Of a DNA stretch of 64,000 bases, positions 1-34,386 are shown piece after piece (position 1 is the stretch's first letter; every line of letters begins with the position of its first letter). The notes below the pieces were generated by a model that did no database searches, was not told the origin of the DNA, and saw nothing but the letters and a program-made list of their open reading frames with translations. Made by a program: the position numbers and the translations under genes. The stretch lies in NCBI GenBank assembly GCA_030390025.1, contig CM059431.1, positions 126,420,001 to 126,484,000 of the forward strand. Reading direction: 5' to 3'. The stretch comes from Squalus acanthias (lineage: Eukaryota).

Positions 1-583
1 ATTCGCTTAATGTGCAGTTGGTGTGCGACCACACACAGTGAATTCTCAATGTGAATGCCCGCTATCCTGGCAGCAGCCACAATGCCTTCATCTTGCGCCA
101 GCACTCTTCCAACCACCACGTCAAGCTTGTGACTGGCTGGTCAGAAACAAGGGCTATCCGCTCTCCACCTGGCTCATGACTCCCCTCCTCAACCCCAACA
201 ATCCTGCCCAGCACTCATATAATGAGAGCCATGCCGCCACCAGGAACATCATCGAGCAGACCATCGGGGTGCACAAGGAATGGTTCCGCTGCCTTGACCA
301 TTCGGGAGGAGCCCTCCAGTACTCAGCTGAGTGGATGTCCCATTTCGTCGATGTCTGCTACATGCTCCACAATTTGGCCATCATGAGGGCCCAGCCCTTG
401 CCACCAGGGATTGCAGGACCACCTCAGGAGGAGGAAGAGGGAGAGGAGGAGGACAAGAAGGAAGAGGAGGAACAGGAAGATGAGGAGGATGATGACTAGG
501 AGGAAGAAGAGGAGTGAGGGAGGAGGCAGTCACTCAATCGGCTTTCCGGAAGGGACTGCTTCATCAGACTGTGGTTCCAATAA
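1..583 (+). pseudogene. Harbinger (HARBI1-like, DDE_Tnp_4) transposase C-terminal part
   Basis: SLNVQLVCDH start and WLVRNKGYPLSTWLMTPL...YNESHAATRNIIEQTIGVHKEWFRCLD...MLHNLAI. The catalytic GD motif is mutated, and there is a frameshift and a premature TAG at 497-499. Confidence 0.9.
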
Positions 584-769
584 ATTAAACCCCGGATCCC
601 CATTGCTCACCACATCCCCATCATTCCATCCAGCTGAAATGAGACACACCAGAAAATAATCCAAACTGAATTAATACATTTATCAATAATCAGTTAACAC
701 ATATTTACAACAACAATATTAAGTTTTCACCCTTGTGCAATCCCATAGTGCCTCTCGATATAGTGTCTT

Positions 770-3388
770 TGCCTACTCTAGCGCTCCTACGAAGTGTGGC
801 CCAGTGGCTGCAGCAGGGCTGGTGGAAGGCTGCTGAGTGTCCGTGCAGGAGACTTCAGATGACCTTGCAGGATGCCCTCGACCAGTTCTGGGCCTGAAAG
901 GCTGGCTGTAGACAGCACCACCTCAGCATGGGCGGCAGCAGTCTGGGCTGGCTGGATGACAGACAGCGACAAGGGCAATGACAGATTGCCAGTGGTGGGA
1001 GCAGGAATGCTGTCATCCTGAGAGAGGACAGCAAGTTCCTGCTCCACTGACCCACTGCCACTCCCCCGGGGCAGCACCTCAGCATTCCTAGCAATCTGTT
1101 GCAGCACAGATTGCTGGCCTGCTGCGACACTGTGAAAGCCCCGGTCGACGGTGGTAGATCCAGCCATGATGGCAGCAGTGAGAGCTTGCGTGACATCAAG
1201 CTGAGACTGCATGAGAGCAGTCTGAGTTTGAATGGCACAACCATAGACTGCATTAGAGAATTAAGACATTGGCCCAGTAATTAAACATCGATGGTTCCCG
1301 CGGGGGTAAGGATTCCCCGCGATATCGCACTCCGCGCCTACCTTTTTGTTTGGGGCCCACACGAACTTCAGTTTCAGGGCCTCTCCCTGTTGCAACCGTG
1401 CAGTGCTTGCGTGTCCCAGAGGCGCAATTAGTTCGTGCGAGCTCTGGGATCACGTGATTCAGTTAGAGCCAATGGCAGCACACCATCTTTCATTCATAGT
1501 TTTGACAGCAAGGACTGTCAAAGCTATGAATACTACAAGCCCCCAAAAGAACAGCTGAACCTCAATTAAATTTAAAAAAAAGCCATCACATTAATAAAAT
1601 ATCTATAGTTAAATAAATTAACCACTTTAAACAAAAAATTAAATTTTTGAAAAAATTTAAAATCTTTTTAAAAGTTATAAAAATAAACTTACCTTTCTTT
1701 AAAGTCTCTAAAAAAGATAAACCTGTTGAAAAAAAATTAAAATAACACTTAATTAACTACTTACCTTGTTAAAAGGGGGTCCTACGCCTGCTTTCTTTAT
1801 GTGTAAAATCTTCACCACTTACCTGCACGTTAAAACCTGAAAAAAAACCTAAGTGCACTGCGTGCGCACAGCCTGTAGCACGCACGTGGTTAACTTAGGA
1901 ACCGCCCCCTTTGCAATACACGAAGTGCCGGTTTCCCGCGCATGCGCAGTGCATGCAGGAAACCGGCAATTTGGGACCTAATACGCAAGAGTACACAGTG
2001 CGTACTCTCGCGTATTAGGTCTAATTTTCAGGCCATTGTGTCGCTTCCGCCTGTGCTGCAATGGAAGCTGCCAGATCACCCGTCACACGCAACATCAGGT
2101 CTGGGTCGCCACGGTCTCTCTGGGAGTCTACCATCCTTTTCAGACTGGAAATGATGGGCTCCATGGTGTGCGCAGAGCTTTGTGCGTTGGAGGCGGACTC
2201 CTCCACGCTTCTTACCATTGCCGACAGACTCTCGGACACCCTTGCCATTGCACCTATCATCTCCGTGTGCATGCCCATCACCCTTCTTCTAAAGGCCGCC
2301 CCATCGAGGTCCTCATCTGAGTCCTGTGCAGCAGAACTCACACGCAAACTCACCCTCCGGGGAGCTGTCCCCCAAACTATCCTTTCCCCCTGGATTTGCT
2401 GCAGCCCGCTCCTCCCCGGTGCATCACCCTGTGCAGATCCTGCTATTATACTAGCCTCTAAAGAATGTGTAGTGCCAATATCTGAGCTGGTGCCTGCGGG
2501 TGAGACATGCAGTGACGCGGGGTGTTCTTTCTCCTCCTCTTCTCCCGACTCGCTCTCAACGGTGCCCTCAGGGACAGGCTGCTCAGCGGCTTGCTCATTA
2601 TCTGAAAGCATAAAGGCACAAGAGTCGGGTTAAGGTGAGGGGAGGTGGGCAGGAGGGAGAAATGCATGCATACAGCATGATTAGTTGGAAGGTGCAAAAA
2701 GCTTGTGGGATGAGGGGGAAGTGGGATATGAGAAAAAGGAGTAGGAATGAACATACCGTTGTTGTCCCCAAGGGGGCCAATGTTGCCGGTGGCCACAGCA
2801 CCCACCACCTGTCGCCCAATAACCTCCAGCACTCGATTCTCCAGCGCAGACACTGGTTGGGTGTCGGCTTGTCCCCCGCCTGTGCGCTCCTGCTCCTTCC
2901 TGTTGTGAGCCACCTTGGCCTGCAAGAGAAAGGAAAGTTTGTGAGTGAGTGTGGAGCAATGTATTTGGGTGATGAGCCTGCCATAGTTAAATAGCTGTCA
3001 TTTTGTGCAAGGTGTGAGATGTGGGTGTGAGTGTTGGTAGGCAGAGAATGGTGTTGGGTAAGCACTGGGGATGTGGTGTTTTGGCCAGTGTGTGCAGGCT
3101 ATCGTTCAGACGGTAGTATGTAACATTTGTTGAGGCATTGACTCACCATGACCACCCGAGTGAGGTCATTAAATTTCTTCCTGCACTGTGTGTGGATCCT
3201 GGGGACCACAGGCTGCCCGAGACCTGCTGGGCTACCTCCCTCCACATGGCACGGAAGACTTGCGGCGAGGACCTCCTGCCACTTGCCGGGTAGAGCACCG
3301 CCCTCCGTCTCTCCACAGTGAGGACCAAGGCCTCCAATGCTTGGTCTCAGAATTTGCGAGCTCTCTCCCTGGGGCGTGGATGTGCCAT
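770..3388 (-). pseudogene. Harbinger Myb/SANT-like DNA-binding partner gene, 3 exons (introns 2920-3146 and 2602-2756), interrupted by a MITE
   Basis: Exon 1 reads RERARKF.DQALEALV...WREVAQQV...QCRKKFNDL (Myb/SANT-like). GT-AG introns lie at the same positions as in copies B and D. Confidence 0.85.
1271..2034. mobile_element. Non-autonomous Harbinger-like MITE, family 1, copy 1
   Basis: GGCC termini with an ATT/ATT 3-bp TSD (1268-1270, 2035-2037). Removing it restores continuity with the Myb-gene exon 3 of copy B. Confidence 0.9.
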
Positions 3389-3858
3389 GAGTACAACTGG
3401 TTGAGTTGTCCAGCTCCTTGGGCTTGGCCTGCTCCTGCTCGCTGACACAGGTTCACAGCCAGCAATGCTGAGAATGAGGTTCTGCAGCATGATTGAACCT
3501 CCCCTTTAAGAACTGGAAAGAGCCTGTGGCAATGATGACTAGCGATTAGACTGCACCTGATATTGGTTAGTGCTTTGAGTGTAGTGCCACTGAGCTAGGC
3601 CGTTAGCGCTTGATTTAGCGCTCCAATCCTTTCTTTGAGCGATGCTACTTAATTTTGCATGCAGCATGATTAATTAGCGCCTGGTGCTAAATCTCAAACT
3701 TTTCTGAAGTTACCGTTCATTCATGGGCTATAATTAACTCCTCCCCCTATGCCTCTATTAATAAAGGTCATGATGCGGAGATGCCGGCGTTGGACTGGGG
3801 TGGACAAAATTGAGAGGTCGCACAACACCAGGTTATAGTCCAACAGTTTTATTTGAAA

Positions 3859-3900
3859 TCACAAGCTTTCGGAGCTATCGATCGCCCCTTCCTCAGGTGA
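3859..3900 (-). ncRNA. Minimal type I hammerhead ribozyme (core intact)
   Basis: The minus strand reads TCAC-CTGAGGA-A-GGGGC-gatcgata-GCTCC-GAAA-GC-TT-GTGA: stem I TCAC/GTGA, CUGANGA, 5-bp stem II, GAAA, palindromic AAGCTT stem III, CUU cleavage triplet. Confidence 0.8.
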
Positions 3901-3923
3901 AGTAAAGTCTGTATTTCTTTACT

Positions 3924-3965
3924 TCACCTGAGGAAGGGGCGATCGATAGCTCCAAAAGCTTGTGA
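3924..3965 (+). ncRNA. Minimal hammerhead ribozyme, probably inactive copy
   Basis: Same motif as 3859-3900 but GAAA is changed to AAAA at 3954 (CpG-type transition). Confidence 0.7.
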
Positions 3966-4574
3966 TTTCAAATAAAACTGTTGGACTATAACCTGGTGTT
4001 GTGCGACCTCTCAATTCTATTAATAAAGCCAAGGATCCCATCTGCTGTTTTAACAGCCTTCTCAACTTGTCCTGCCACCTTCAATGATTTGTGTACACAC
4101 ATCTTCAGGTATTTTCATTCCAGAGCCCCCTTTAATATTGTACCATTTATCTTATATTGCCTCTCCTCATTCTTTCTACCAAAGTGTATCATTATACACT
4201 TCTCTGTATTAAATTTCATCTTCCATGTGTCTTCCCATTTCAGCAATCTATCTGTGTCCTCCTGAAGTTTATTACTATCCTTCTCATTGTTTACTACATT
4301 TCTGAGTTTTGTGTCATCTACAAACTTTGAAATTCTGCCCTGCATACACAAGTCCAGGTCATTAATATATACCAAAAAGAGCAGTGGTCCTAATACAAAT
4401 TACAGGGAACACCTCTGCATTATTTCCCTCCAGTCTGAAAAACAACCGTTCACCACTACTCTCTGTTTTTTGTCCCTTAGCCAATTTCGGATCCATGCTG
4501 CCACTGTCCCTTTAATCCCATTGGGCTTCAATTTTGCTAACAAGTCTATTATGTGGTAGTTTATCAAAGGCCTT

Positions 4575-7100
4575 AAGGGCACAGCAGTCATCATGGGTGA
4601 CTTTAATCTACATATAGATTGGGCTAACCAAATTATTAACAATACTATGGAGGAGGAATTCCTGGAGTGTTTACGGGATGGTTTCCTGGACCAATATGTC
4701 GAGGAACCAACCAGAGATCAGGCCATCTTAGACTGGGTATTATGCAATGAGAAAGGATTAATTAGCAATCTTGTTGTGCGAGGCCCCTTGGGTCGGAGCG
4801 ATCATAATATGATAGAATTCTTCATTCGGATGGAGAGTGAAGTAGTTGACTCAGAGACTAGGGTCCTGAATTTAAATAAAGGAAACTACGATGGTATGAG
4901 GTGCGACTTGGGTAGGATTGATTGGGGAATGTCACTCAAAGGGTTGATGGTGGATAGGCAATGGCAAACTTTCAAAGACCGCATGGACGAACTACAGAAT
5001 TTGTTCATCCCAATTTGGCATAAGAATAAAACAAAAAGGGTGACTCAACCGTGGCTAACAAGGGAAATTAGGGATAGCATAAGATCCAAGGAGAGGGCAT
5101 ATAAATTGGCCAGAAAAAGCAGTAACCCTGAGGATTGGGAGCAGTTTAAGATTCAACAAAGGAGGTCAAAGGGATTAATTAAGAAGGGGAAAATAGAATA
5201 CGAGAGTAAGCTTGCAGAGAACATGAAAACTGACTGTAAAAGCTTTTATAGATATGTGAAGAGAAAAAGATTAGTGAAATCAAGCATAGGTCCCTTTCAG
5301 TCAGAATCAGGGGAACTTATAATGGGGAACAAAGAAATGTCAGACCAATTAAATACATATTTTGGTTCTGTCTTCACAAAGGAGGACACAAATAACCTCC
5401 CAGAGATGTTGGGGAACATAGCGTCAGATAAAAGGGAGGAACGGAAAGAAATCAGTATTTGTAGGGAAATGGTGTTAGGAAAATTGGCGGGATTGAAGGC
5501 CAATAAATCCCCAGGGCCTGATAATCTACATCCTAGGGTACTTAAGGAAGTGGCCCTAGAAATAGTAGATGCATTGCTGATCATCTTCCAACATTCGATG
5601 GAATCTGGAACAGTACCCATGGATTGGAGGGTAGCTAATGTTACCCCACTATTCAAAAAGGGTGGTAGAGAGAAAACGGGGAATTACAGACTGGTAAGCC
5701 TGACATCAGTAGTGGGGAAAATGCTAGAGTCCATCATAAAAGATGTAATAGCTGAGCACTTGGAAAACAGTGACAGAATCGGACAAAGTCAACATGGATT
5801 TACAAAAGGTAAATCATGCTTGACTAATCTACTGGAATTTTTTGAGGATGTAACTGGTAAAACAGAAAAGGGTGAACGAGTGGATGTGGTGTATTTGGAC
5901 TTCCAAAAGGCTTTTGATAAGGTCCCGCATAAGAGATTAGCGTGCAAAGTTAAGGCACATGGGATTGGGGGCAAGGTATTGACTTGGATAGAGAATTGGT
6001 TGGCAGACAGAAAGCAAAGAGTTGGAATAAACGAGTCTTTTCCCGAGTGGCAGGCAGTGACTAGTGGGGTACCGCCGGGATCGGTCCTTGGACCCCAGCT
6101 ATTCACAATATATATCAATGATCTAGACAAGGGAGCTAGATGTAATATCTCCAAGTTTGCAGATGACACAAAACTGGGTGGGCATGTGTGCTGCGAGGAG
6201 GATGCCGAGAAACTCCAGGATGATTTGGACAGGTTGGGTGATTGGGCAGAAGCGTGGCAGGTGCAATATAACGTGGATAAATGCGAGGTTATCCACTTTG
6301 GTGTCAAAAACAGAAAGGCAGATTATTATCTGAATGGCAATAGATTGGGAGAAGGGGAAGTGCAACGAGACCTGGGTGTCCTTGTGCACCAGTCGCTGAA
6401 GGTAAGCATGCAGGTGCAGCAGGTGGTTAAGAAGGCAAATGGTATGTTGGCCTTCATAGCGAGAGGGTTTGTGTACAGGAACAAGGATGTCTTGCTGCAG
6501 TTGTACAGGGCCTTGGTGAGACCACACCTGGAGTACTGTGTGCAGTTTTGGTCACCTTATCTGAGGAAGGATGTTTTTGCCATGGAAGGAGTTCAGCGAA
6601 GATTCACAAGGCTGATACCTGGGATGGCAGGAATGACGTATGAAGAAAGATTGGGTCGATTGGGCTTATACTCGCTGGAGTTTAGAAGAATGAGAGGGGA
6701 TCTCATTGAAACTTATAAAATTCTGACAGGACACGACAAACTAGATGCAGGAAGGATGTTCCCGATGGTCAGGGAGTCCAGATCCAGGGGTCACAGTCTA
6801 AGGATAAGGGGTAAGCCATTTAGGACAGAAATGAGGAGGAACTTCTTCACCCAGAGAGTGGTGAACCTGTGGAATTCTCTGCCACAGAAGGCAGTAGAGG
6901 CCAATTCATTAAATAGATTCAAGAAGGAGTTGGATATATTTCTTAAGGCTAAAGGGATCAAGGGATATGGGGAGAAAGCAGGGACAGGGTACTGAATTTG
7001 GATGATCAGCCATGATCGCATTGAATGGCAGAGCAGGCTAGAGTGGCCGAATGGCCTACTCCTGCTCTATCTTCTTTGATCCTATGATCTATGGTCTATG
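4575..7100 (+). mobile_element. Young 5'-truncated CR1 LINE inserted antisense into the older CR1
   Basis: Uninterrupted ORF, CR1-type 3' UTR and (ATCTATG)-like tail. The host CR1 resumes collinearly at about 7101. Confidence 0.95.
4593..6995 (+). CDS. CR1 ORF2 (partial AP endonuclease plus reverse transcriptase), 800 aa without stops
   Basis: MGDFN and SDH endonuclease motifs; KSPGPD, QHGFTKGKSCLTNL, YLDFQKAFDKV, GVPPGSVLGP and [10 protein letters not shown] motifs. Confidence 0.95.
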   Translation: MGDFNLHIDWANQIINNTMEEEFLECLRDGFLDQYVEEPTRDQAILDWVLCNEKGLISNLVVRGPLGRSDHNMIEFFIRMESEVVDSETRVLNLNKGNYDGMRCDLGRIDWGMSLKGLMVDRQWQTFKDRMDELQNLFIPIWHKNKTKRVTQPWLTREIRDSIRSKERAYKLARKSSNPEDWEQFKIQQRRSKGLIKKGKIEYESKLAENMKTDCKSFYRYVKRKRLVKSSIGPFQSESGELIMGNKEMSDQLNTYFGSVFTKEDTNNLPEMLGNIASDKREERKEISICREMVLGKLAGLKANKSPGPDNLHPRVLKEVALEIVDALLIIFQHSMESGTVPMDWRVANVTPLFKKGGREKTGNYRLVSLTSVVGKMLESIIKDVIAEHLENSDRIGQSQHGFTKGKSCLTNLLEFFEDVTGKTEKGERVDVVYLDFQKAFDKVPHKRLACKVKAHGIGGKVLTWIENWLADRKQRVGINESFPEWQAVTSGVPPGSVLGPQLFTIYINDLDKGARCNISKFADDTKLGGHVCCEEDAEKLQDDLDRLGDWAEAWQVQYNVDKCEVIHFGVKNRKADYYLNGNRLGEGEVQRDLGVLVHQSLKVSMQVQQVVKKANGMLAFIARGFVYRNKDVLLQLYRALVRPHLEYCVQFWSPYLRKDVFAMEGVQRRFTRLIPGMAGMTYEERLGRLGLYSLEFRRMRGDLIETYKILTGHDKLDAGRMFPMVRESRSRGHSLRIRGKPFRTEMRRNFFTQRVVNLWNSLPQKAVEANSLNRFKKELDIFLKAKGIKGYGEKAGTGY

Positions 7101-7179: not shown

Positions 7180-9817
7180 TCCTGCACAAACCTGAAGTGC
7201 TGTGCGCGAGACACTGGGTGCCCCTTCCCTGGCTTGTTGAGCCACTTGTGTTAGTGCTGAAGCACCTTAACCATTTTTTTATGTGTGAAAGCAGTTCAGC
7301 TTTAAGAGTTGAAGACTGCCATTGTGGAATTATTTTTAATGTTTATTTCTTTCACAAGGCAGTTGAGCTCTAAGGACTAAAGACTGCCTATTTTTAAATA
7401 ATTGTTATTTTTTTCATTTTAGAAGGCAGTTCCCTTTTAAGGGATCAACACTGCTTTCTAAAATGACAGGCTAGGTTTAAGACAATGCTGCCTTGTTCCA
7501 GGGACGCTACGGCAACGTTACATTGAGCCTCCTGCTGAGACTACTGCCGGACAAAGAGTGTTGCGCGCCAGGTTTTGTGCAGCGCTAATTTAAATTAGCA
7601 GGCAGCATAGGGGAAACATTTGTGCTTGCCAGTAAAGTTGCCAGTGTCACTGGCAACTGGAGTTAATGGCCGCTGAGAATGGCTGCAATGCTAATGGAGT
7701 GAAATTGGTCTGGGGGGCATGGAGATTGGTGGCGCAGCACTTACCTTCCATAGAGTGCCATCCTGGTGACGTTGCTGGAGGCAACTGAGGCAAAGTTCCT
7801 GTCAAGGTGTGGCATTGAAGCTTTGCAAAACCTCTGGTATCGAGGCTTTGGAGTTCGCAAGGAATTGTGGGTAAAGAAGAAGTCTGAGAATTAAAGGGGC
7901 CATGCACACTGAAGCAATACAAAATTAAAGGAAGTGAAACAATGCAGTTTTCTGCCCTTTCTGCCTTTTTAAAAATAGTTAACATTAAAAAGAAGTCCCA
8001 AATGTGAATATTCAGCTCTTAAAGCTGAATTACCTTCCTAACCTCAACAAATGGGAAAATTACCTCAGCACTAACACAAATGGCTCAGCAAGCCAGGGAA
8101 GGGGCACCTAGGGTCTTGCACGCAGCACTCCAGCTTTGTGCAGGGGGTCAATACTACAAGAGAGGTCCTCTACCCACAAGGGCTATGAGGCCCTCCAGAA
8201 AGAAAGCTGTGGGACCAGATCACCGAGGCTGTCACTGTCTGCAGTACCACCTCCACCACCTGGCTCCAGTGCCCAAAGAAGCTTCATGACCTCAGACCAC
8301 TGGTCAAGGTCAGTGAATGCATCTTCAAAAGTCGTCTCCTACCAACTGCACCACTAGTGACACACACTGCTCAATGCACGACCCCCAATCACTCACCAAC
8401 AATCTGCATCAATCATGAGGCACACCTCCCATTTCTAGCCTCACCTCACCCCCTTGGAGGAGACGGTGCAGGCCCTTCTTGGCAGTGGAATGGCTAAGCC
8501 CTTGGCCAGCGGCGGGACTGAAAGGATACAAGATGCTGGTATCCTCATACGTTATCCTCCTTCTGGTGTGCACCTCTTGCTTTCCCGCTCTCCCCTCACC
8601 ACAGCTCCACCCTGTGCCTTCCTCATTTCACACACCCAAGAAATGCAGCCTGCACAGCCAGTGGGTGACCAAGAAGAGGGGGAAGAGAGTGAAAAAGAAC
8701 AAGAACAGAGAAGAAGAAGAAGGTTGATTTGACACTCCCAGCCACCAGCTCCTCAAGATCGACCAGCAAGGCCATTTGCAGTGTTCCCCACTGAAAGTCA
8801 TCAGCCTTCCACCAGCCATGCTGCAGCCACTGAGGTAGCACTGCGAGACATCAGTAGGATAGGCAAAGGCACACACAAGACAGTCACTAAGAGAATGCTT
8901 ACGGGTGATGAGTTGATTTCTTGATGTCTCATTGGATGAATACATGTATATGGGTGGATTGGAAATTTTGCTTTTTGGTGGCTTTTATTTCAGCATCGTG
9001 GCCAAGAGGACATTGTGATGGTCAGTAACAGATGGAAGGTAAGGTGCGGGACTAATGTTGAAAGGGAATTTGGGGTTATGGTCACTGGGACCTTAGGCAG
9101 ATGATTCCATCCGGGATATCCCAGCCACAACGAGGCTGTCTGGGATGTATCCTTCCTCTTCTGCTTCCTCCTCTTCTGTGTCTTCCTCTTCCCTCTGCAA
9201 GCAGATGCTGTAAATGTGAAATGACAGCATAAGATGCTGGAAATACTCATCTGATCAGGCAGCATCTTGACCTGAGACGTGAACTCTGTTTTTCACTCCA
9301 TGTTTTTTGTGACCTGCTGATATTTGCAGCATGTTCTGTCTCCTCAAAGAGCTTCATTTAGCATCCGAGCCCTTGCAAGCGCCCAGCAGCACTCCCTACA
9401 CACTTAAAAAACTTTCACATTCACTATTGCAACAAGCCACCACTTCAATAAAATCAAAAAAAAACAGTCCAAAACTTACATTCAAACTTACCTAATGATG
9501 TGTGTGTCCCTTTAAGAGGTCCAGACATCGCTACTGTCAGCCTGCTTGCACCCCAGGTTAACCTGGCGTGCTTAGAACCCAGCGCTGAATTGAGCGCTAG
9601 GGTCGAAGTTTAAGTTGGTGATGCTAAGTCAATTGCGCGGCAATTGACGTCACCACACCGCCATTTTCTTTCCAGGGCGCTGCCAGTTACCGGCAGCGCA
9701 AAGGGGGGAGAAGAATATGGCAGTCACCACAGGACCCGCTACTAGCTGGCGAAAGAGCGGTGGTCGCCATTTTATCGCCACTTACGGAGTGGCAGTATGT
9801 AGATGAATTTCTAGCCC
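7180..9817. mobile_element. Degraded Harbinger element C (left boundary uncertain)
   Basis: Myb-like start MAQQAREGAPR at 8080, CAAGAAGCTTCATGACCTC-like motif and AAG|GTCAGT donor near 8308. Right TIR AATTTCTAGCCC ends at 9817, identical to the copy D TIR. Confidence 0.65.
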
Positions 9818-10387: not shown

Positions 10388-10521
10388 AAATGTTCCCTCT
10401 AAATTTTTTTGGGTGCGCAGTCCATTTAAATTTGCTGGGCGGTATCTTTTCCAGCGGCAGCAGCTGGTGAGCGACCTGCACGAGACCTTCCGATCTGCCA
10501 CGCACCTTAGAGGGAACATTG
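10388..10521. mobile_element. 134-bp hAT-type MITE
   Basis: TIR AATGTTCCCTCTAA/TTAGAGGGAACATT. 8-bp TSD TCTCTATG/TCACTATG (1 mismatch). Interrupts the Penelope RT motif. Confidence 0.8.
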
Positions 10522-12120
10522 TCACTATGGCAACCCGTATGGGGCCTAGCTATGCCTGCCTTTTTGTGGGATACGTGGAACATTCTTTGTTCCAGTCCTA
10601 CTCAGGTCCCCAACCTCACCTCTTTTTCCGGTACTTTGATGATTATATTAGTGCTACTTCCTGCTCTCGTCTGAGCTGCAAAATGTCAGCAAGTTTGTTT
10701 CAATTTCCACCCCTCTCTCAGCTCTACATGGTCCATCTCCAACTCCTCCGTCCCTTCCTCGACTTCTCTATTTCCATTTCTGGGGATAGGCTGTCAACCA
10801 ATATCTACTATAAGCCCACTGACTCCCACAGCTACCTTGATTACACTTCCTCCCACCCCATTTCCTGTAAGGACTCTATTCCATTCTTCCAATTTCTCTA
10901 GCTCCGTCGCATCTGTTCTAACAATACCACCTCCCACAACAGTACTTCCGATGTGTCTTCCTTTCTCTTCAACCGAGGATTAACCTCAACTGTAGTTAAC
11001 AGGGGCCTTGACCGTGTTCGTTCCATTTCCTGCTTTTCTGCCCTCATCCTGTCCCTCCTTTACAGAACCACAATAGGGTTCCCTTATTTCCCCCTTTTCT
11101 TTGGGTTATCTGTACCATTGATTGTTTAGAGATAAGTTAGAAAACTAAAGGAGTCCTCAGCTCACCCTCCTTTTTTCTTTCCCTATCTTTCCTGAATACC
11201 TCCCACTCCACCAACCTGCACATTGAACAGATCATCCTCCACCAATTCCGCCACCTCCAGCGCGATGCCACCACTAAACATAACTTGCCCTCCCCTCCGC
11301 TTTTAGTATTCCGAAGGGTCCATTCCCTCCACGACACTCTTCAATCAACCCAAACACCTGCACCCACTCTCACAGCACCTTCCCATGCAAGTGCGGGAGA
11401 TGCAACACGTGCCCTTTCACCTCCTCCCTTCCTACCATCCTGGGCCTCAAATATTACTTTCAGATGAAACAGCGATTTACTTTTAGTTCTTTCAATTTAG
11501 TATACTGTATTCGCTGCTCACGATGTGGTCTCCACTACATTGGGAGACCAAACGCAGACTGGGTGACCGCTTTGCGGAACACTTCCATTCACTCCGCAAG
11601 TGTGACTCCAAGCTTCCAGTTGCTTGCCATTTTAATTCATCATCCCACTCCCACACTGACCTCTCTGTCCTTGGCCTTCTACACTGTTCCAATGATGCTC
11701 AGCGCATGCTCAACAAACAGCGCCTCATCTTTCGATTAGGCACTTTACAACCTTCTGGACAATGAGCTAGAAATTGATTATAGCCCAGGAATGGGCAGTA
11801 TCATTCGAAAAGTTGAAGAATTAGCGCCAGGCATTAATGCTTTAGACTGCACGCATATTCATTCTCACTGCTCAAAGAAATGATTGGAGCGCTAATTCAA
11901 GTCTTAAAGCCAAAGCTCATTGGCGTTACACTCAAAGGGTGGACCAATACTACATGCAGTCTAATCGCAAGTCATCATTGCCACAGGCTATTTCCAATTC
12001 TTAAAGTGGAGGTTCATTGATGCTGCAGAACCTCATTCTCAGCATTGCTGGCTGTGCAGCTGCCTCAGCAAGGAGAAGCACGTCAAGGAGAATCGCCGGA
12101 TGACTGAAGCAACTGTACTC

Positions 12121-14003
12121 ATAGCAGGTCCATGCCCCAGGGAGAGAGCCCGCAGATTCTGTGATCAAGCATTGGAGGCGTTAGCGTTCGCTGTGGAGAG
12201 ACGGAGGGTGGTGCGCTACCCAGCAAGTGGCAGGAGGCCCTTGCCGCAAGTCTTCGGCACCATGTAGAGGGAGGTAGCGCAGCACGTCTCGGGCTGCACT
12301 GTGGTCCCCAGGACCCACACACAGTGCAGGAAGAAATTTAACAACCTCACTCGGGTGGTCAGGGTGAGTCAGTGCTTCAACAAATGTTACCTACCACCAT
12401 CTGAACCACAGTCTGCACACACTGCCCAAAGCACCACATCCCTAGCACTCACCCATCAACAATATCTACCTAACAACAGTCAAACCCACATGTCACGCCT
12501 TGCACAGCTATTCAACTATGGCAGGCACATCACCCAAACACATTGCTCCACACTCATTCACACACTTTCCTTTCCTTGCAGGCCAAGGTGGCTCACAAAA
12601 GGAGGGAGCAGGAGCACAGGCGGGGGACAAGCCGACACCCAACCACAGTCTGCGCTGGAGAATCGAGTGCTGGAGATTATTAGGCACCAGATGGTGGGTG
12701 CCGTGGCCACCGGTGACATTGACCCCCTTGGGGACAACAACACGTATGCTCATCCCTACTCCTTCTTCTCACATCCCACTTCCCCTCACCCCACAAGCCT
12801 TTCGCACTTTCCAGCAATCGTGGTGTACGCATGCATTTCTCCCTTCCTGCCCCCCTCCCCTCACCTTAACTGGACTCTTGTGCCTTTATGCTTTCAGGAA
12901 ATGAGCAATCAGCTAAGCAGCCTGTCCCTGAGTGTACTATAGAGAGCGAGGCAAGAGAAGAGAAGGAGGAACACACCGTATCACAGCATGTCTCACCCGC
13001 AGGCACCAGCTCAGATACTGGCACTACGCGTTTTTAAGAGGCTAGTATAGTAGCGGGATCTGCATGTGGTGAGGCACGGGGACGAGTGGGCTGCAGCAAG
13101 GCCACAGGGAAAGGGTAGCTCGGGGGCCAGCTCCCCGTAGGGCGAGTTTGCATGTGGGTTCTGCTGCACAGGACTCAGATGAGGACCTCGATGGGTAGGC
13201 ATTTAGAAGAACGGTGATGGGCAGGCACATGGAGATGATAGGTGCAATGGCAAGGGTGCCTGAGAGCCTCTCGGCAATGGTAAGGAGCGTGGAGGAGTCC
13301 GCCTCCAACATTGCACAAGGATCTGCACACACCATAGAGCCGATCATTTCCAGTCTTCAAAGGATGGTAAACTCCCAGAGAGACCGTGGCAACCCATACC
13401 TGATGCTGAGTGTGATGGGTGATCGGGCAGCTTTCATTGCAGCACAGGCAGAAGCAACGCAACGTCCTAGTGCTGTAATACCGGCTATGCTTGGTGGCAT
13501 CCAATCTCAGGCTGCTCTCACGCAGTCTCAGCTTGATGCCATGCAAGCTCTGACTGCTGCCATCGTGGCTGGGTCTACCACCGTCGACTGGCGCTTTCAC
13601 GGTGTCACAACATGCCAGCAATCTGTGCTGCAACAGATTGCTAGGGATGCTGAGGTGCTGCCCCGGGGGAGTGGGTCAGTGGGGCAGGAACCTGCTGTCC
13701 TCTCTCAGGATGACAGCATTCCTGCTCCCACCACTGCCACTCTGCAATTGCCCTTGTCGCTGCCTGTCATCCAGCCAGCCCAGACTGCTGCCGCCTATGC
13801 TGAGGTGGTGCAGTCTACCCCCGGGCCTTCCAGGCACAGAGCTGGTTGAGGGCATCCTGCAAGGTCATCTGAAGACTCCCGCATGAACACTCAGCAGCCT
13901 TCCACCAGCCTTGCTGCAGCCACTGGGCCAACACTTCTTAGGAGCACTAGAGTAGGCAAAGGCATTATATTGAGAGGCACTAATGGATTGCACAAGGGTG
14001 AAT
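12121..14003 (+). pseudogene. Harbinger Myb/SANT-like gene (introns 12364-12581 and 12744-12897)
   Basis: RERARRFCDQALEALA...VVPRTHTQCRKKFNNLTRVV; exon 3 includes ORF 13214-13849. Several stops and frameshifts. Confidence 0.85.
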
Positions 14004-14170
14004 AGTTAATATTTTTGGTGCAAATATGTGCTCACTGATTTTTGATACATTTATTCATTCAGTTTGGATTCTTTTGTGGTGTGTCTCATTTCAGCTTTGC
14101 GCTGTGAAATGGCCTGCGACAGGGATGGAATGATGGGGATTTGGTGACGAATGGGGATCTGGGGTTTAAT

Positions 14171-15397
14171 TTATTGGAACCGCAGTCTGATGAGGTGATC
14201 ACAGACCTCCCTTCCAGAAGGCCGATTGAGTGGGTGCCTCCTCCCTCGCTCCTGTTCCTCCTCCTCCTCGTACTCCTCCTCCTCCTCCTCTCCCACTTCC
14301 TCCTCCTTAGGTGCTCCCTCAATCCCTGGTAGCAAGGGCTGGGCCCTCATGATGACCAAGTTGTGGAGCATGCAGCAGACCACCACGAAATGGGACACAC
14401 ACTCAGCCGAGTACTGGAGAGCTCCTCCCGAGTGGTCAAGCTAGCGAAAACGTTGCTTTAGCACCCCGATGGCCTGCTAGATGAGGTTCCAGGTTGCAGC
14501 ATGGCTATCATTATATGAGTGCTGGGCAGGATTGTTGGGGTTGTGAAGTGGAGTCATGAGCCAGGTGGAGAGTGAATAGCCCTTGTCTCCGACCAGCCAG
14601 CCCCGAGCTTGACATGATGGTTGGAAAAGTGCTGGCACACCAGTCTGGCACAGGATGAAGGCATCGTTGCTGCTGCCAGGATAGCAGGCATGGACGGTGA
14701 GGATTCGCTGTGTGTGGTCACACACCAACTGCACATTAAATGAGTGGTAGCCCTTGTGATGACGGAAGATCTTAGGATTGTTATGCGGTGCCCGCAAAGC
14801 CACGTGGGTGCAATGTCAACCTTCACCATGGGGAATCCCGCTATCCTGGCAAAGCCACATGCATGCTCGTCCTGCTTCTCTCTGGTGATGGGGAAAGAAA
14901 TCTATTCCCTTCTCCTACTGTAGTGCACTTCTGTGACCTCTCGGATGGACGTCGAACTGCAAAATTTTAGCTATGTCTCCTGTTACATATTGGAAGGATC
15001 CACTGGCGAAGAAATTGAGGGCGACGGTGACCTTAACTGCCACTTAGAGAGCCATGGTCACCCTGATCTGAGGCTCCAGGTCTGGTTGCAGGAGGTGGCA
15101 GAGTCCTGTGACCACTTCCTTGGTGAAGTGGAGCCTTCCAATACACTGCTCCTCACTTAATTGGAGGTAGGAGATTTGCTCTCAGAATACCCTCGGAGAG
15201 TTAGGCCTCCTGTTGAGAGCCCTGATGGCCCTCCTCTTCCCTCTGGCCACATGTTCCACTCTTTCTCGCTGCCTCCACTCCCTCCACCGTTGAACTTGGA
15301 GGGCCAGGTAAGCTGCCAGTACAGCCCCCATTAATGTAAGCATAATGTATCGGTTTGATTTTTTTAAGAATAAATGTAACTGCTTTTTAGTTATCAC
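14171..15397 (-). pseudogene. Harbinger (HARBI1-like) DDE transposase
   Basis: RRPNSPRVF, KGYHSFNVQLVCDH...YPGSSNDAFIL...WLVGDKGY...MLHNL, a poly-Glu tract and the C-terminal LIRLRFQ*. Confidence 0.92.
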
Positions 15398-16079
15398 ACC
15401 ACTCCTGATACTAAATTACCTATAAATTACTGAATTAAACTGTTGCGCAATGTCAAACTGACAAGAAAGCACTGAAACTCCACTAACCTGACAGCTGCGA
15501 CTCATTACTCATGATCCCTTTAAATAGCGTCCCTGAAGCCAGCTTCCGGCTGCTTCACGCCAGCTCTCCCTGTCATTGTTTGGTCTGGGCACTAAGGTAG
15601 GTGGCAACAATCAATTTCACAGATCGGGCAGCCAGTGAGCGTTGCATGCTGACTGATGTCATGGTCTGCCTGGCGTTGAAGTCCCCGGTGGTATCTTGTA
15701 CCGGCGGCGCAACCGGGGGTGCCGGATTTGCCGTGCATCGCTGGATTTCCCTTGCCCCAGTAATGGGAGGCACTACGAAACTGAATTTTTTCCCCATTGA
15801 GTTCAGCAATTTCAGATTATAAACACTGCTCCCATTTTTTTCAGACAGCAGGTGCTGGTAATGGTTCTGCTGTCGCCAATTACAGCTCCTCTAGACCCAT
15901 GTTTTGTTTCTTTATTTGTCCCATTACCACCCCCTGTTGCCTTGAACCATCGTCCCATTTCTCATTTAACCACTTCTGCCTTCTATCCTATCACAGACCT
16001 TCTCCTTTGTTCTTTTCTCCCTTCCCCCTTTCCCTGCCTCTGTACTTGCTTAAAAACTGTTACATCTCCAACTTCTTCC

Positions 16080-16116
16080 AGTTCTGACTAAACGTCATCA
16101 ATCTGAAATGTTAACT
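16080..16116 (+). ncRNA. Degenerate hammerhead in a Penelope pLTR
   Basis: AGTT-CTGACTA-...-GAAA-TGTT-AACT. Core G8 and stem II are mutated relative to 28021-28057. Confidence 0.5.
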
Positions 16117-16210
16117 CTGTTTCTCTCTTCACAGATGCTACCTGACCTACTGAGTGTTTCCAGCACTTTCTATTTTTTTTCAGCTTTCCAGCATCCACAG
16201 TATTTTGCTT

Positions 16211-19559: not shown

Positions 19560-21514
19560 GCAAGGTTGATGTAGCTGTACCTGACTAATACAGTGGACCT
19601 CTGTACAGAGGAGTACAGAAAGTGTAGGGGTGCAATTAAAAGGATATTAGGAAAGCAAAGAGAGAACATGAAAAATTCTTGGCAAGTACAATCAAGGAAA
19701 ACCCAAAGATGTTTTATAAATATATTAAGAGTAAGATGATAACTAAAGAAAGGGTAGGGCCTATTAGAGATCATGAGGGTAATCTGTGTGTGGAGGCGGG
19801 AGACGTCGGTAGGGTTCTTAATGAATACTTTGCGTCTGTTTTCACAAAGGAGAGGGGCGAAGCAGACATTGCTATCAGAGAGGAGGAGTGTGAAATATTA
19901 GATGAAATAAACATAGTGAGAGAGGAAGTATTAAGGGGTTTAGCAGCTTTAAAAGTGGATAAATCCTCAGGCCCGGATGAAATGTATCCCAGGCTGTTAA
20001 GCGAAGCAAAAGAGGAAATAGCAGAGGCCCTGACCATCATTTTCCAATCCTCTCTGGCTCAGGTGTGGTGCCGGAGGACTGGAGGACTGCTAATGTGGTA
20101 CCCTTGTTTAAAAAGGGAGAAAAGGATAGACCAAGTAATTACAGGCCAGTCAGTCTAACCTCGGTGGTGGGAAAATTATTGGAAAGAATTCTGAAGGACA
20201 GGATAAATCATCATTTAGAAAAATACGGATTAATCAAGGATAGTCAGCACGGATTTGTTGAGGGAAGGTCGTGTCTGACAAACTTGATTGAATTTTTTGA
20301 GGAGGTAGCAAGGAGGGTAGATGAGGGTAGTGCTTTTGATGTAGTGTATATGGACTTTAGCAAGGCTTTTGATCAGGTTCCACATGGCAGATTGGTCACG
20401 AAGTTAAAAGCCCGTGGGAGCCAGGGCAAAGTGTCAAGTTGGATTCAAAACTGGCTCGGAGACAGGAAGCAGAGGGTAATGGTTGATGGGTGTTTTTGTG
20501 ACTGGAAGGCTGTTTCCAGTGGGATTCCGCAGGGCTCACTACTAGGTCCCTTGCTTTTTGTGGTATATAACAATGATCTAGACTTGAATATAGGGGGTAT
20601 GATTAAGAAATTTGCAGATGAAACTAAAATCGGCTGTGTGGTTGATACTGAAGAAGGAAGCTGTAGACTGCAGGAAGATATCAATAAATTGGTCAGGTGA
20701 GCAGAACAGTGGCAAATGGAATTCATTCCGGAGAAGTGTGAGGGCTAACAAGGAAAGGGAATAAACATTAAATGGTAGGACACTGAGTAGTGTAGAGGAA
20801 CAAAGGGACCTTGGAGTGCATGTCCACAGATCCCTGAAGGTAGCAGGCCAGGTCGATAAGTTGGTTAAGAAGGCATACGGAATACTTGCCTTTATTAGCC
20901 GTGGCATAGAATACAAGAGCAGGGGGGTTATGCTTCAACTGTATAAAACACTAGTTAGGCCTCAGCTAGAGTACTGCGTGCAGTTCTGGTCACCACATTA
21001 CAGGAAAGATGTGATTGTACTAGAGAGGGTACAGAGGAGATGTTGCCGGGAGTAGAGAATCTTAACTATGAGGAAAGACTGGATAGGCTGGGTCTGTTTT
21101 CCTTGGAACAGAGGAGGCTGAGGGGAGACCTTATTGAGGTGTATAAAATTATGAGGGGCCTAGATAAAGAGGATAGAAAGGACCTATTTACCTTAGCAGA
21201 GGGGTCAAAAACCAGGGGGCACAGATTTAAAGTAATTGGTGGAAGGTTTAGAGGGGATTTGAGGGGAAATTTCTTCACCCAGAGGGTTGTGGGGGTCTGG
21301 AACTCACTGCCTGAAAGGGTGGTAGAGGTAGAAACCCAAACCACATTTATAAAGTACTTGGATGTGCACTTGGGATGCTGTAACCTGCAGGGCTACGGAC
21401 CAAGAGCTGGGAAGTGGGATCAGGCTGGATAGCTCTTAGTTGGCCGGCGCAGACACAATGGGCCAAAATGGCCTCCTTCCGCGCTGTAACTTTCTATGAT
21501 TCTATGATTCTATG
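19560..21514 (+). mobile_element. 5'-truncated CR1 LINE, frameshifted RT
   Basis: ORFs 19679-20158, 20065-20700, 20816-21055 and 21040-21432 carry RT motifs. (ATTCTATG)n tail. Confidence 0.93.
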
Positions 21515-27041: not shown

Positions 27042-27964
27042 AAATTTACTCTACTAAGAGAAACTTCGATGTAAATACTCCCTAATCCCCAAAAGTAATC
27101 AGATGAAACCTCAGAATATTCACTATTCATTCCCACAGGGGATCTCCTGCCGTAAACAGCAATTTGTGCATTTCTCCGAGGTTTCTGCCTTATGTTATGG
27201 TGGGAGCTCGGAGAACCCCCGTGGAAACTCTACCCTTTGTGTTTGTGGAGTGTTTGAACATTTATCTCAATGCACACTTACTTTCGGCTCTTTTGCACCA
27301 TGTAACTGTTTATTATACAACAACGTTGGTAAATGTCCTCTATAATACACAAATGTGGATATTATCCATATACTGTACAGCAAAAGTTCTTTTAATCTTC
27401 TTTATGAACCTTATATGTGGATTTTTATTAAAACCTTCTGAAAATTGAAGCAGTTTATAGCAATTGGATTGCCCTTATCAATCAATTTAGTTACCTGCTC
27501 CCACAATTTCCAACAGATTTGTGAGGCAATACCTATTACTTCTGAATCTATGCTGTCTATTACTTAAGGCCTCTGTGCTCTTTAATTAGCATTGAAAGTG
27601 GATCTGCAGCCATCTAAAGGATATCCCTTTTATGTAACAGGCCATGGAGACTCATTGTGTGCCCATTATTTATAACTTTATCTCTCCTAACAGGATTTTC
27701 AAGATGGAAGATAAAATCCTCTTAAGAGATGTGAAAGCCGTTTCACATAAAGACCTGAGATGTATTAAAGTGCCACCTGAAATTGTCTATTATAATAATA
27801 CTTGAGAAAAGAAAATCAGAGTGCTTTATTTGATGTCATCACATAATACACTTGTGGTAAATAAGCAGAATATTTGACAGTAATCCATTTCAGAGGGAAT
27901 TTGTCTCACTTGTGAGTGGGGAGTATATACTTCAGAGCTGCAGCAGTCAGTAATTATCTGAAAA

Positions 27965-29055
27965 GAAACAAAAAATGCTGGAAATACTCAGCAGGTCAGG
28001 CAGCATCTGTGCAGAGAGACAGTTAACGTTTCAGGTCGATGACCCTTCGTCAGAACTGGAAAAAGTTAGAGATGTAACAGATTTTTAAGCAAGTGCAGGG
28101 GCAGGGAGAGGGGGGAGGAGAGGAAAGAACAAAAGGGAAGGTTTGTGATAGGATGGAAGGCAGGAGAGGTTAAAAGGCAAAAGGGATGATGTTGCAAGGC
28201 AAAAGGAGATGGTAATGGGGCAAATTAAGAAACAAAAGATGACTCTAGATGAGGTGTAAATGGGAATGGCAGAATCATCAACAATAGGGGCAGAGGGTAT
28301 GGTCTGAAATTCTTGAACACGATGTTGAGTCCAGAAGGCTGTAAAGTGCCTAATCGAAAGATGAACTGCTGTCCCTCGAGCTTACATTGAGCTTCGTTGG
28401 AACAGTGTAAGAGGCCGAGGACGGAGAGGTCAGAGTGGGAGTGGAGCAATGAATTAAAGTGACAGGCAACCGGAAGCTCGGGGTCACCCCTACGGACTGA
28501 ATGGAGGTGTTCAGCAAAGCGGTCACCCAATCTGCGTTTGGTCTCCCCAATGTAGAAGAGATCGCATCGTGAGCAGCGAATACAGTATACTAAATTGCAA
28601 GAAATACAAGTAAATCGCTGTTTCACCTGGAAGGAGTGTTTGGGGCCCTGGACAATGGGAAGGGAGGAGGTAAAAGGGCGGTGTTGCATCTCCTGCGCTT
28701 GCACGGGAAGGTGCCATGGGAAGGGGAAGGAGTGTTGGGTGTGATTGAGGAGTGGGCCAGGTTGTCACGGAGGGAGCGGTCTCTGCGTAATGCTGAAAGG
28801 GGAGGGGAGGGGAAGATGTGTTTGGTGGTGGGATCACGATGGAGGTGGCAGAAATGGCGGAGGATGATCCATTGAATGAGGAGGCTGGTGCGGTGAAAGG
28901 TGAGGACAAGGGGAACCCTATCATGGTTCTGGGAGGGAGGGGAAGGGGTGAGAGCAGAAGTGCGGGAAATAGAACGGACATAGTCAAGGGCCATGTCAAC
29001 CACAGTAGAGGGGAATCCTCGGTTGAAGAAAAAGGAATACATGTCGGAAGCATTA
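27965..29055 (-). mobile_element. Penelope 3' part (GIY-YIG domain plus pLTR)
   Basis: ORF 28225-28704: NLVYCIRCSRCDLFYIGETKRRLGDRFAEH...VACHFN...FIFRLGTLQPSGLNI. Confidence 0.92.
28021..28057 (-). ncRNA. Minimal type I hammerhead ribozyme (core intact)
   Basis: Minus strand reads AGTT-CTGACGA-A-GGGTC-atc-GACCT-GAAA-CG-TT-AACT, with a palindromic AACGTT stem III and a GUU triplet. Confidence 0.8.
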
Positions 29056-29056
29056 G

Positions 29057-30060
29057 GATTACATAGAATATACGGCCCAACCAGTCCATGCCGGCATTTA
29101 TGCTCCACACGAGCCTCCTCCCCTCTTTCCTCATCTAAATCTATCAGCGTCACCTTCTATTCCCTTTTCCCTCATATGCTTGTCTAGCCTCCCCTTGAAT
29201 GCATCTATACTTTTCGCTTCAACCACTCTCTGTGGTAGCGATTTCCACATTCTCACCACTCTTTGGGTAAAGAAGTTTCTTCTGAATTCCCTATTGGATT
29301 TCTTGGTGACCATCTTATATTGATGGCCTCTAGTTATGCTCCTCTCCACAAGTGAAAACACTCTCTCTGTATCCACTCTATCAAAATTTTTCATAATTTA
29401 CAGACCTCTATTAGGTCACCCCTCAGCCTTCTTTTTTCAAGAGAAAAGAGACGCAGCCTGTTCATCCTTTCCTGATATGTATACCCTTGCATTTCTGGTA
29501 TCATCCTTGTAAATCTTCTCTGCACCCTCTCCAGTGCCTCTATATTGTTTTTATAATATGGCGACCAGAACTGTACGCAGTACTCTAAGTGTGGTCTAAC
29601 CAAGGTTCGATACAAGTTTAGCGTAACTTCACTACTTTTCAATTCTATCCCTCTAGAAATAAACCCTAGTGCTTGGTTTCCCTTTTTATGGCCTTGCTAA
29701 CCTGCGTCACAACTTTTCGTGATTTGTGTATTTGTACTCCGAGATCCCTTTGTTCCTCTACCCCACCTAGACTCGCACCCTCCAAGTGATAAGTGACCTC
29801 TCTATTCTTCCTTCCAAAATGTAATACCTCACATTTATCTGCGTTGAACTTCATTTGCCAATTATATGCCCATTCTGCAAGTTTATTAATGTCCTCCTGT
29901 AATTTGTTGCAGTCCTCCTCAGTATTGACTAACCCCTCCAATGTGGTGTGATCCGCAAATTTAGAAATGATGTTTTTAATTCCAAGTCTAAATCATTATT
30001 GTAAATTATGAACAGCAGTGGTCCCAGCACTGATCCTTGTGGAACACCACTACCCACCTT
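29057..30060 (-). mobile_element. CR1 3' fragment
   Basis: LYRTLVRPHLEYCVQFWSPYY, RRNFFTQRVVRMW and a 3' UTR at about 29060-29130. Confidence 0.92.
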
Positions 30061-30061
30061 G

Positions 30062-32001
30062 GAAACGTTGAGTTCAACAATTTCAGACTATAACCTCTGC
30101 CCCTATTTTTTCAGGCGGCAGCTGTTGATGATTCTGCCATCCCCATTTGCAACATTTAACCTCTCCAGCTTTCCACCCTATCACAGACCGTCCCTTTTGT
30201 GCTTTCCTCACCTCCCCCCTTTCCCTGCCTCTGCACCTGCTTAAAATCTGTTACATCTCTAAAATTTGTAAGGGTTTTGACCGTCTCTCCGCCTGTGAGA
30301 TTCGTGTGGCTCTGTGCAGCCTGGATGCTAGTGCGAGGTTAGGCCTTGTTGCCTGTTCTGGTCTCCAGCCAGTCTGGGAGCACTAGACACCTGTGAGTGG
30401 TTCGAATCACTCGCCCTTACGGTTCTAGACACTGGACTTAGATGCGAGAGCAGTAATGGAGATGAAACTCAGGTAGACTCGGTTGAATGGTACGAAATGG
30501 AAAATCTTTATTGCATAATACTTAAGATTACGAAATACATGTCATAAGCACAGATTAATGACAGTACAATCTTACACGCAGTTATGTAACTAATTTCAGG
30601 GAAACGAGGAACGAACGACACACCGTAAATGGGGGCACACATTACAATTATCCTTAATACTTGAAAACCCCCCTATCAATATCTGTCCTAAGCTAGATTC
30701 GTAGGATTCGAGACTCATGCTCACCACTCGTGATAACTCGGAGAAATTCCGAATAGCTGATCGGATGTTTTCACCGCAGCACCCACGTGTCGATCAGGGG
30801 GTCTCCTGGCCCCACTTGTTTACTTGTTTCTGCTCCGGCTAGCAGGCTGGAACGTCTGCTGTCATGAAGATCTGTGTTGGTGGTTTTCAAAGTCCAGTCA
30901 ATACTTAAGAAAAGAATCTTCCGGTGTCCGTTCTGTAAAGTTCAAAGAAGTCTTCCTGGCAAGGAAAATGTCAATTCGACCTACAGGCGCGGTCGGGGCT
31001 TACTGACCGTGGCGATAAGTGTGGTCTTCGTCTCTTCCCATCTCATCTCATCTCATCTCTTCTCGGGCCTTTGGTTCCGATACCGGTTATCAACACAGGT
31101 CTTCGCGACACGACACGAGGTAGATCCGAGCGGATCACAAAGTTCAACAGTCTTTTAAAAGAGACACGAGGCAAGCAGGAACAAGACGGCGAGTCAAAAA
31201 CACAGGAGCAGCCACGAGGATGAACACCAGCAAGATACGAAGATAAGAGGATAAGAGAGAGATGGACGGTTGGAGCTTGTAATTATAGTACAAAATCTTC
31301 CGTTTCCCGCCCAACCTCAATGTCCCTTCCCCTTGTTAGGGCTTGGCGCTCAAATGTCCTGTATAGGTGATCTCCGTTTTTTAATGGGTTTCGGGGCTAC
31401 TCGTAAATGTCTGAGTACCTGTTAATATTTCTCCCATTGTTTAATCGGTCGGTGTTCTCCCTGGAGGGGTTTTGGGGCCTCCAAGTGTTTTCTGTAACTA
31501 CCCGCTAACGGCTCTCTCATCGTAGAGTCGTTGGGATTTTACATATTAATGTCTTTGGATGGGTTCTTGATTACTGGGTACAATAGCTTTCATTCGTACC
31601 TGGGAGACCGATTTCAGTATCTATGTGTATACTGCAAACCAAAGATGTCTCGTGTATTATCTTCAATGTGCTGAATCTTAATCGATCTTGCACAAATGTT
31701 TATTGGAACGCCATCTTGTCTGCCTGTCGAAAAGTCTAGAATGTTCCGCCACGAGGTGCGGCGGCCATTTTACAAGCTGCTTGTGTCCACTTTGAAACCT
31801 GACAGCATTCTGCTGAAATAAAAGCTGTTTGAACGAAACTAAGTGTTTTCTCCTTATTAATGAAATCGCGATATATTGCGAATTCTACAAATTTTCCAGT
31901 TCTGACAAAGAGTCATCGACCTGAAACGTTAACTCTGTTTCTCACTCCACGATGCTGCCTGACCTGCTGAGTGTTTCCAGCATTTTCTGTTGTTATTTCA
32001 G
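30062..32001 (+). mobile_element. Penelope pLTR (inverted relative to 27965-29055), interrupted by a solo LTR
   Basis: GAGTTCAACAATTTCAGAC...GTTACATCTCT joins TTCCAGTTCTGAC after the LTR. Hammerhead at 31898-31934 has a mutated core (CTGACAA). Confidence 0.85.
30267..31889 (-). mobile_element. Solo LTR (1623 bp), ERV- or Gypsy-type
   Basis: TGTA...TACA termini, 4-bp TSD AATT (30263-30266 and 31890-31893), AATAAA on the minus strand at about 30506-30511, no convincing ORF. Confidence 0.8.
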
Positions 32002-32730: not shown

Positions 32731-32988
32731 AAGTAATTATCTGGTTCCCCTCACTCCATTACTGAGACTGAGGAGTTAGCTGGTTGAATGGGTAATGCGA
32801 GATAATCAATGTCATATTGCTGAGGAGTTTAGAGGGTAATGGGATGATGACATTCAGTGCATGATAGGCTGAGGAGAATCGTCAGATAGAAGTAGTGATC
32901 AGCAATTATGAGTATGTATTTGGTGTATCATTTTCTTGACTTTTTTTTGTTACATAGCAACACTGATATGTATATATTCATATATAAT

Positions 32989-34364: not shown

Positions 34365-34386
34365 TGAATATCTCCCTTGTGTCTAA

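Follow-up and report, generated by a model that had tools for sequence, protein, structure and literature searches.

The locus lies near the left end of a 64-kb stretch of Squalus acanthias DNA (hereafter the window) and consists of a 249-bp insert between exact 13-bp duplications. The duplicated word, TCTATTAATAAAG, occupies 3754-3766 and 4016-4028 with 13/13 bases identical, and among 63,680 window positions scanned it was the sole 13-mer recurring at a distance of 262. It is 85% A+T and carries ATT on both strands. No open reading frame (ORF) of at least 120 aa overlaps the insert. Inside, two arms (left, 3808-3907; right, 3917-4016) are complementary at 99/100 positions and enclose a loop of 9 nt (3908-3916), and base 4016 is counted both in the right arm and in the right duplication, which leaves a 1-nt overlap. 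The exact target site duplication (TSD), the near-perfect 100-bp hairpin and the ORF-less 249-bp insert of the original prediction were all recovered in this way. A further 41 bp (3767-3807), left unnamed in that prediction, extends the left arm only. Within the 64-kb window there is only one copy of this head-to-head pair.

The sole difference between the arms is at 3954, where an A stands against the G (in sense) of 3870. In minus-strand RNA this mismatch becomes a U-G wobble, so that the stem is paired throughout, and RNA of the 249-nt insert is predicted to fold with −192.7 kcal/mol (z = −28), with none of 200 shuffles equally stable. Scanning of the window against Rfam gave three chance matches to microRNA precursors, one of them on the hairpin; this match, to MIR6425, scored 43.7 bits where the gathering score is 142, and a microRNA reading of the hairpin was rejected.

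The insertion splits an old LINE-like repeat fragment (3747-4143), both flanks of which align contiguously to a paralogous stretch at 45086-45219, where 19/20 bases of the left flank are alike and the right flank continues without a break. This paralogous repeat carries the target word once, as an empty site at 45093-45105 with 12/13 bases alike to the left TSD copy, so the duplication was made by the insertion. The right flank also aligns to 20362-20897, overlapping a frame which, by its motifs, we take to be reverse transcriptase (RT)-like. Other mobile DNA surrounds the site. A Harbinger-like element is present as two inverted copies (7-3737 and 11774-14739, 83-85% alike, with a DDE_Tnp_4 match at 11-496), and it ends 10 bp to the left of the repeat fragment bearing the insertion. 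On the other side, an 811-codon open frame at 4560-6995 with RVT_1 and a partial endonuclease domain marks a young LINE beside the insertion.

Each arm carries a hammerhead motif. On the minus strand, 3900-3859 reads as a minimal type I hammerhead with an intact core, i.e. stem I of 4 bp, CUGAGGA, one unpaired A, stem II of 5 bp, GAAA and GCUU, with a predicted cut at 3863/3862 and a stem III that could form only in a dimer, via AGCU. It has the CUGANGA and GAAA cores, stems I and II, the unpaired base before stem II and the palindromic stem III remnant that characterize a minimal hammerhead ribozyme. The plus-strand copy (3924-3965) fails in its core at G12, which is A at 3954 and turns GAAA into AAAA in a CpG context, and the loss of the plus-strand core at this base was correctly predicted. 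Since no variant was listed at the mirror place 3870 in the family contigs described below, G is the family state there, and the change at 3954 would most simply be a later CpG deamination. When both strands of the window were scanned, three minimal type I motifs were found, at 3896 on the minus strand and at 28053 and 32645, the last two in another family. Rfam hammerhead models expect a closed stem III. No hammerhead match was returned by Rfam for the window at E up to 1 or for 3767-3916 at E up to 10, so the ribozyme call rests on motif anatomy.

By this anatomy, the minus-strand motif fits the minimal hammerheads described for Penelope-like elements (PLEs) in passages of PMC4209133, with which it shares the 4-bp stem I, the unpaired base between positions 9 and 10.1, the G10.1-C11.1 pair and a palindromic 15.2-16.2. 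It differs in a stem II of 5 bp, compared with 7-8 bp in the Schistosoma families, in a U at position 17 and in belonging to a new sequence family; sharks are not named in those passages. According to the same source, single PLE motifs of this kind did not cleave, and dimers cleaved weakly.

A read-through RNA in either direction holds one sense motif, which is transcribed later than its antisense copy. The hammerhead fold, if imposed on the two read-through RNAs, costs 76.7 and 73.9 kcal/mol, compared with 2.0 and 4.3 kcal/mol in a single arm. Because it would be buried in the hairpin by about 75 kcal/mol, the sense hammerhead should not cleave in read-through RNA, and in this folding model the locus should be catalytically silent there. 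Thus, the two back-to-back hammerheads of the original prediction are present as two motifs, but on opposite strands and with one sense motif per transcript. Similarly, its hammerhead anatomy and its predicted cut after CUU are right as readings of the motif, but the fold is blocked in the read-through transcript and the motif has no dimer partner in cis. A frame is open through the hammerhead (3860-3906 on the minus strand, 3906-3965 on the plus strand) and stops just past the predicted cut, and the sole ATG of the sense arm is at 3769-3771, at the 3′ terminus of the family; either could mark the end or the start of a parent ORF.

Four public runs (of 20 listed, from 8 studies) were aligned to 3640-3945. 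Two of them, X1 and X5, are presumably DNA from two samples of one organism, and X7 and X9 are presumably RNA, so expression is not claimed from them. Contigs aligned in all four (12,621 in X1, 9,653 in X5, 1,904 in X7 and 1,384 in X9), and depth summed over the X1 contigs, which does not equal copy number, rose from 9,089 at 3750-3760 to 2.76 million at 3772-3782. The family is clearly a very abundant one, with a 3′ end that coincides with the tail end of the insertion. In X1, only 3,341 of the 12,621 contigs are at least 99% identical. Among the 24 rows of loose contig ends listed (with 382 further rows outside these figures), ends pile up at 3767-3770 in 4/4 runs, with 41 and 58 contigs in X1, 37, 38 and 49 in X5, 4, 13 and 10 in X7, and 9 and 10 in X9. 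Agreement beyond this point is 0.37-0.53, i.e. many unrelated flanks share one terminus. On this evidence we read 3767-3807 (minus strand) as a 41-bp ‘tail’, carried by one arm only and reaching the common 3′ terminus of the family. The left arm (3808-3907), which is sense on the minus strand, would then be the tail-bearing, 5′-truncated end of an element, and its complement (3917-4016, plus strand) an inverted, tailless, 5′-truncated copy. A second, tailless recurrent terminus near 3808 is weakly suggested by the loose ends listed, with 17 X5 contigs ending at 3801 and 4 X1 contigs at 3797, and by one X5 contig that joins 3766 to 3811.

The loop belongs to one of the two copies. Depth over the loop region (3904-3936) was 146,507-185,184 in X1 and 31,806-35,322 in X5; in six X1 loose ends the left arm is followed by the loop's reverse complement, and two contigs of one run, X7, match as far down as 3906 before they diverge. 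From these three observations, the 9 nt of the loop (plus strand) are the family's own sequence from upstream of the hammerhead and continue into the tailless copy. The start of this right copy is at 3906 or 3908, so that its 5′ side exceeds that of the tail-bearing copy by 9-11 nt. The dinucleotide AG at 3906-3907 may be common to both, as a 2-nt overlap between the end of the left arm and the sequence upstream of the right copy; the two X7 contigs point weakly to this.

Contigs also carry strand-changing joints of other family members. Among the seven joints listed, six are of inversion type, each at a different place. Five of the seven lead from an antisense arm, at 3779, 3869, 3880, 3888 or 3892, into a sense copy starting at 3908-3924, and in one the strand changes between 3830 and 3867; the sample is small, and the reference used reveals sense starts only between 3908 and about 3925. 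The mirrored asymmetries of the five joints are 137, 37, 22, 16 and 8 nt, compared with 9 in this insertion, so the palindrome centre is variable in the family. Three of the joints listed contain 2-6 extra letters. The joint 3880-3922, with three letters between, has a depth of 199 in X1 and 219 in X5, about ten times that of the other joints (8.5-35.7); this hairpin may have been amplified within a larger duplication or mobilised again as one unit, and some hairpins may thus be multi-copy. As these are short-read contigs, misassembly is possible at hairpin centres, and none of the 32 contig pieces listed (of 25,859) spans the junctions of the insertion itself. In one X5 contig, 3766 is joined to 3811, from a target-like flank into the family body with the tail skipped, which may be a separate tailless insertion into this same site in a paralogous copy of the host repeat and a hint of a preferred target. 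Loose ends at 3874-3876, seen in four of four runs, reflect a related subfamily that shares the downstream part but departs in stem II and carries CUGACGA or CUGAAGA as its core. Searching metagenome, viral and prokaryote genome contigs for exact 26-nt patterns gave 0 matches each, as expected for an animal repeat.

Taken together, the insertion is very probably a 5′-truncated PLE insertion with an inverted copy. Direct and inverted 5′-truncated copies with a 30-40-bp tail on one end are given as a PLE signature in passages of PMC8557442, PMC3846280 and PMC8969392. Here, an inverted 5′-truncated copy stands beside a direct copy, a tail is present on one end only (41 bp, slightly over the quoted 30-40 bp), and the TSD of 13 bp lies in an AT-rich target with an empty paralogous site, as in insertions of EN+ PLEs. 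The fixed 3′ end at 3767-3770 and the variable inversion joints of the family also agree with EN+ PLEs, with the reservation that the taper of depth toward 3900 is confounded by subfamily divergence. In its head-to-head inverted copy, one-arm tail, short TSD and palindromic junction, the locus resembles the complex EN+ PLE insertions treated in parts of PMC8557442 and PMC3846280; it differs in that both copies are cut to about 100-140 bp, with no ORF and a tail of 41 bp, and its TSD of 13 bp compares with 8-10 bp in the rotifer examples of PMC3846280. Pairs of minimal hammerheads on opposite strands, 100-700 bp apart in Schistosoma, are likewise ascribed to truncated PLEs in PMC4209133, as far as the sections cited here go. 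No ORF has been seen for the family, and we infer PLE identity from the terminal anatomy: the insert holds no RT/GIY-YIG ORF, and there is no single dominant continuation among the loose ends listed. The insertion would then be a known PLE pattern at its smallest, i.e. a new example of the pattern.

Both outer ends of the insert are element 3′ ends, one tailed and one tailless, each on a TSD copy, and two cDNAs, one for each nick and start site, are therefore the simplest account. We propose a single retrotransposition event of an abundant, endonuclease-bearing PLE family. An RT/GIY-YIG protein from a full-length copy elsewhere would cut the AT-rich site with a 13-nt stagger. One nick would prime cDNA from an outer RNA start site, giving the arm with the 41-nt tail, and the tailless arm would come from the other nick, where cDNA synthesis would begin at an inner site 41 nt upstream. 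Each cDNA would end shortly beyond the hammerhead, at about 100-140 nt, with the second reaching 11 nt farther than the first. Joining of the cDNA 3′ ends via the 2-nt overlap, followed by filling in, would produce the head-to-head palindrome with its 9-nt loop and 13-bp duplications. A later CpG transition would have broken one hammerhead core, and the resulting stump would be a dead copy, with no ORF and a hammerhead buried in read-through RNA. Within the truncated-PLE reading, we give this two-nick route about an even chance.

LINE-1 twin priming offers a parallel, in which a cDNA is primed at each of two target nicks and microhomology joins the pair, leaving a 5′ inversion inside one TSD. 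The two nick-primed cDNAs, the microhomology joint and the single TSD are alike; in contrast, the part inverted in LINE-1 twin priming is another one, lying upstream in the RNA, whereas here both cDNAs would copy the same stretch, hence the palindrome. The term ‘twin priming’ was not found in the portions of PLE-relevant papers searched, with subscription literature outside the search. Biochemically, the closest system is PAc, the Poseidon element of Anolis carolinensis. In the parts of PMC11167929 on which we draw, PAc cleaves both strands at ATT within AT-rich DNA and extends both, its RT starts at two sites that delimit the tail, and the hammerhead is not needed for insertion in vitro. The AT-rich ATT target, insertion ends downstream of the hammerhead and a tail between two RT starts agree with our locus. 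However, the PAc ORF starts in stem II and its RT starts lie 111-118 nt into the ORF, whereas the sole ATG of the sense arm here is at the very 3′ end, and those parts of PMC11167929 give no account of inverted copies.

The two-nick route has a serious rival in self-priming with later trimming of the tail, which also fits the orientation of the loop and which we regard as possible, at clearly less than even likelihood. Here, an antisense template, either RNA or free cDNA, would fold back at its 3′ end (CT on AG, with the 9-nt loop) and copy itself to the tail, and the endonuclease would trim the tail of the original arm at integration. The minus-strand order of antisense arm, antisense loop and sense arm with tail fits such a fold-back, and the arms are 99/100 identical while the family varies (3,341 of 12,621 X1 contigs at 99% or more). 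Self-priming was proposed for PLE palindromes in 2013 (PMC3846280), and resolution of tails by the endonuclease has been suggested (PMC8557442), each in the passages cited. However, a tail-bearing cDNA folding at the left nick would give the opposite loop orientation, and a tailless cDNA folding at the right nick cannot supply the tail, so that only an unanchored intermediate works. The orientation of the loop thus rules out the simplest model, in which a tail-bearing cDNA would fold back at the nick that primed it, and two models remain. Moreover, joints with a 137-nt asymmetry or with 2-6 extra letters resemble end joining, and we lean to end joining on the strength of such joints. In addition, PAc in vitro uses the cut target DNA as primer on sense RNA, according to the relevant part of PMC11167929.

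The original prediction had offered two alternatives, an extremely truncated Penelope with an inverted piece of its pseudo-LTR (pLTR) or a dedicated non-autonomous, retrozyme-like element, of which the first is supported, and the second is disfavoured by the lack of a tandem array and by the variable inversion junctions. In the second case, a hairpin element of retrozyme-like or MITE-like type would be transcribed and re-mobilised as a whole 249-nt unit, which we consider very unlikely. Such an element would be compact, without an ORF and flanked by an exact TSD, as is found here, and another inversion joint of the family reaches about ten-fold depth in two DNA runs. Non-autonomous PLE derivatives also exist, as excerpts of PMC8557442 and bioRxiv 10.64898/2026.07.22.740005 report. 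However, there is no head-to-tail array and no second copy in 64 kb. Copies with the same boundaries were sought in the public contigs, where the 3′ end proved common but the inversion junctions variable, and with six different junctions in the family the fixed boundaries of a retrozyme unit were also rejected. Non-LTR retrozymes, as described in parts of PMC7229834 and bioRxiv 10.64898/2026.07.22.740005, consist of 150-450-bp units in head-to-tail arrays, from which monomers and circles are released. The insert resembles them in being small, non-coding and related to PLE pLTRs, with a type I hammerhead, but it is a single head-to-head pair that occurs once in the window, for which reason retrozyme identity was rejected, and with its hammerhead buried in the hairpin it would release no monomer or circle. 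Its motif is also minimal and not of the canonical type of retrozymes in the portion of PMC7229834 cited.

A post-insertion origin, in which a template switch during replication put an inverted duplicate in place of the 5′ part of an ordinary truncated copy, is highly improbable. Template-switch inversions can also show near-perfect arms and a short central overlap. Here, however, the right arm runs straight into the TSD copy with a 1-nt overlap, and the loop is upstream family sequence that is missing from the left arm. The same architecture is, moreover, typical of PLE insertions across taxa in the passages of the PLE literature cited above. An assembly artefact is scarcely credible: perfect palindromes can arise as library artefacts, here by a fold-back chimera, and no contig among the 32 pieces listed (of 25,859) spans the junctions, but the arms differ at one base, the tail is on one arm only, and unique flanks join a known repeat with a 13-bp duplication.

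With the truncated PLE insertion as the preferred reading, the single locus matters little, being a clean, very short case of an insertion pattern already described. It is of use as one data point on how PLEs make an inverted copy with a one-sided tail, and a genome with thousands of such stumps could decide between the routes, according to which arm carries the loop and which the tail. Read-through from either strand, as originally suggested, would give about 100 bp of dsRNA, physically a possible substrate of ADAR or Dicer, and if many such hairpins were transcribed they would be a dsRNA source. It is improbable, though conceivable, that some stumps of the family are re-mobilised as whole hairpins, which would make them a palindromic non-autonomous PLE derivative with a buried, silent hammerhead and a genome-wide source of long dsRNA, with the present insertion as one member; the one hint of this is that other inversion joint, about ten times as deep as the rest in two DNA runs.

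A second PLE family is present in the window as nine pLTR-like pieces, two of them with intact minimal hammerheads (27956-28142, 32480-32760, 15999-16207, 31892-32002, 30193-30262, 9201-9339, 44369-44467 and 59223-59270). As originally noted, the insert is unlike this family, with a match to the common 19-nt core only (E 0.19). Decayed ORF remnants of the second family lie at 10389-11739 and 28225-29156; a weak GIY-YIG match (E 0.00075) was obtained at 28228-28764, and the PLE-like ORF remnants go with this second pLTR family. The inverted pair 31892-32002 and 32545-32655 was considered as one insertion and rejected, with no common TSD of at least 7 bp in the ranges searched; the two look like separate insertions. 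The oppositely oriented pieces 9201-9269 and 9269-9339 may represent an older fold-back stump. Other short, imperfect palindromes lie at 57947-58105, 62086-62140, 42566-42639 and 1975-2021, and the first of these, with a direct repeat of 8 bp close to its ends, is a possible MITE.
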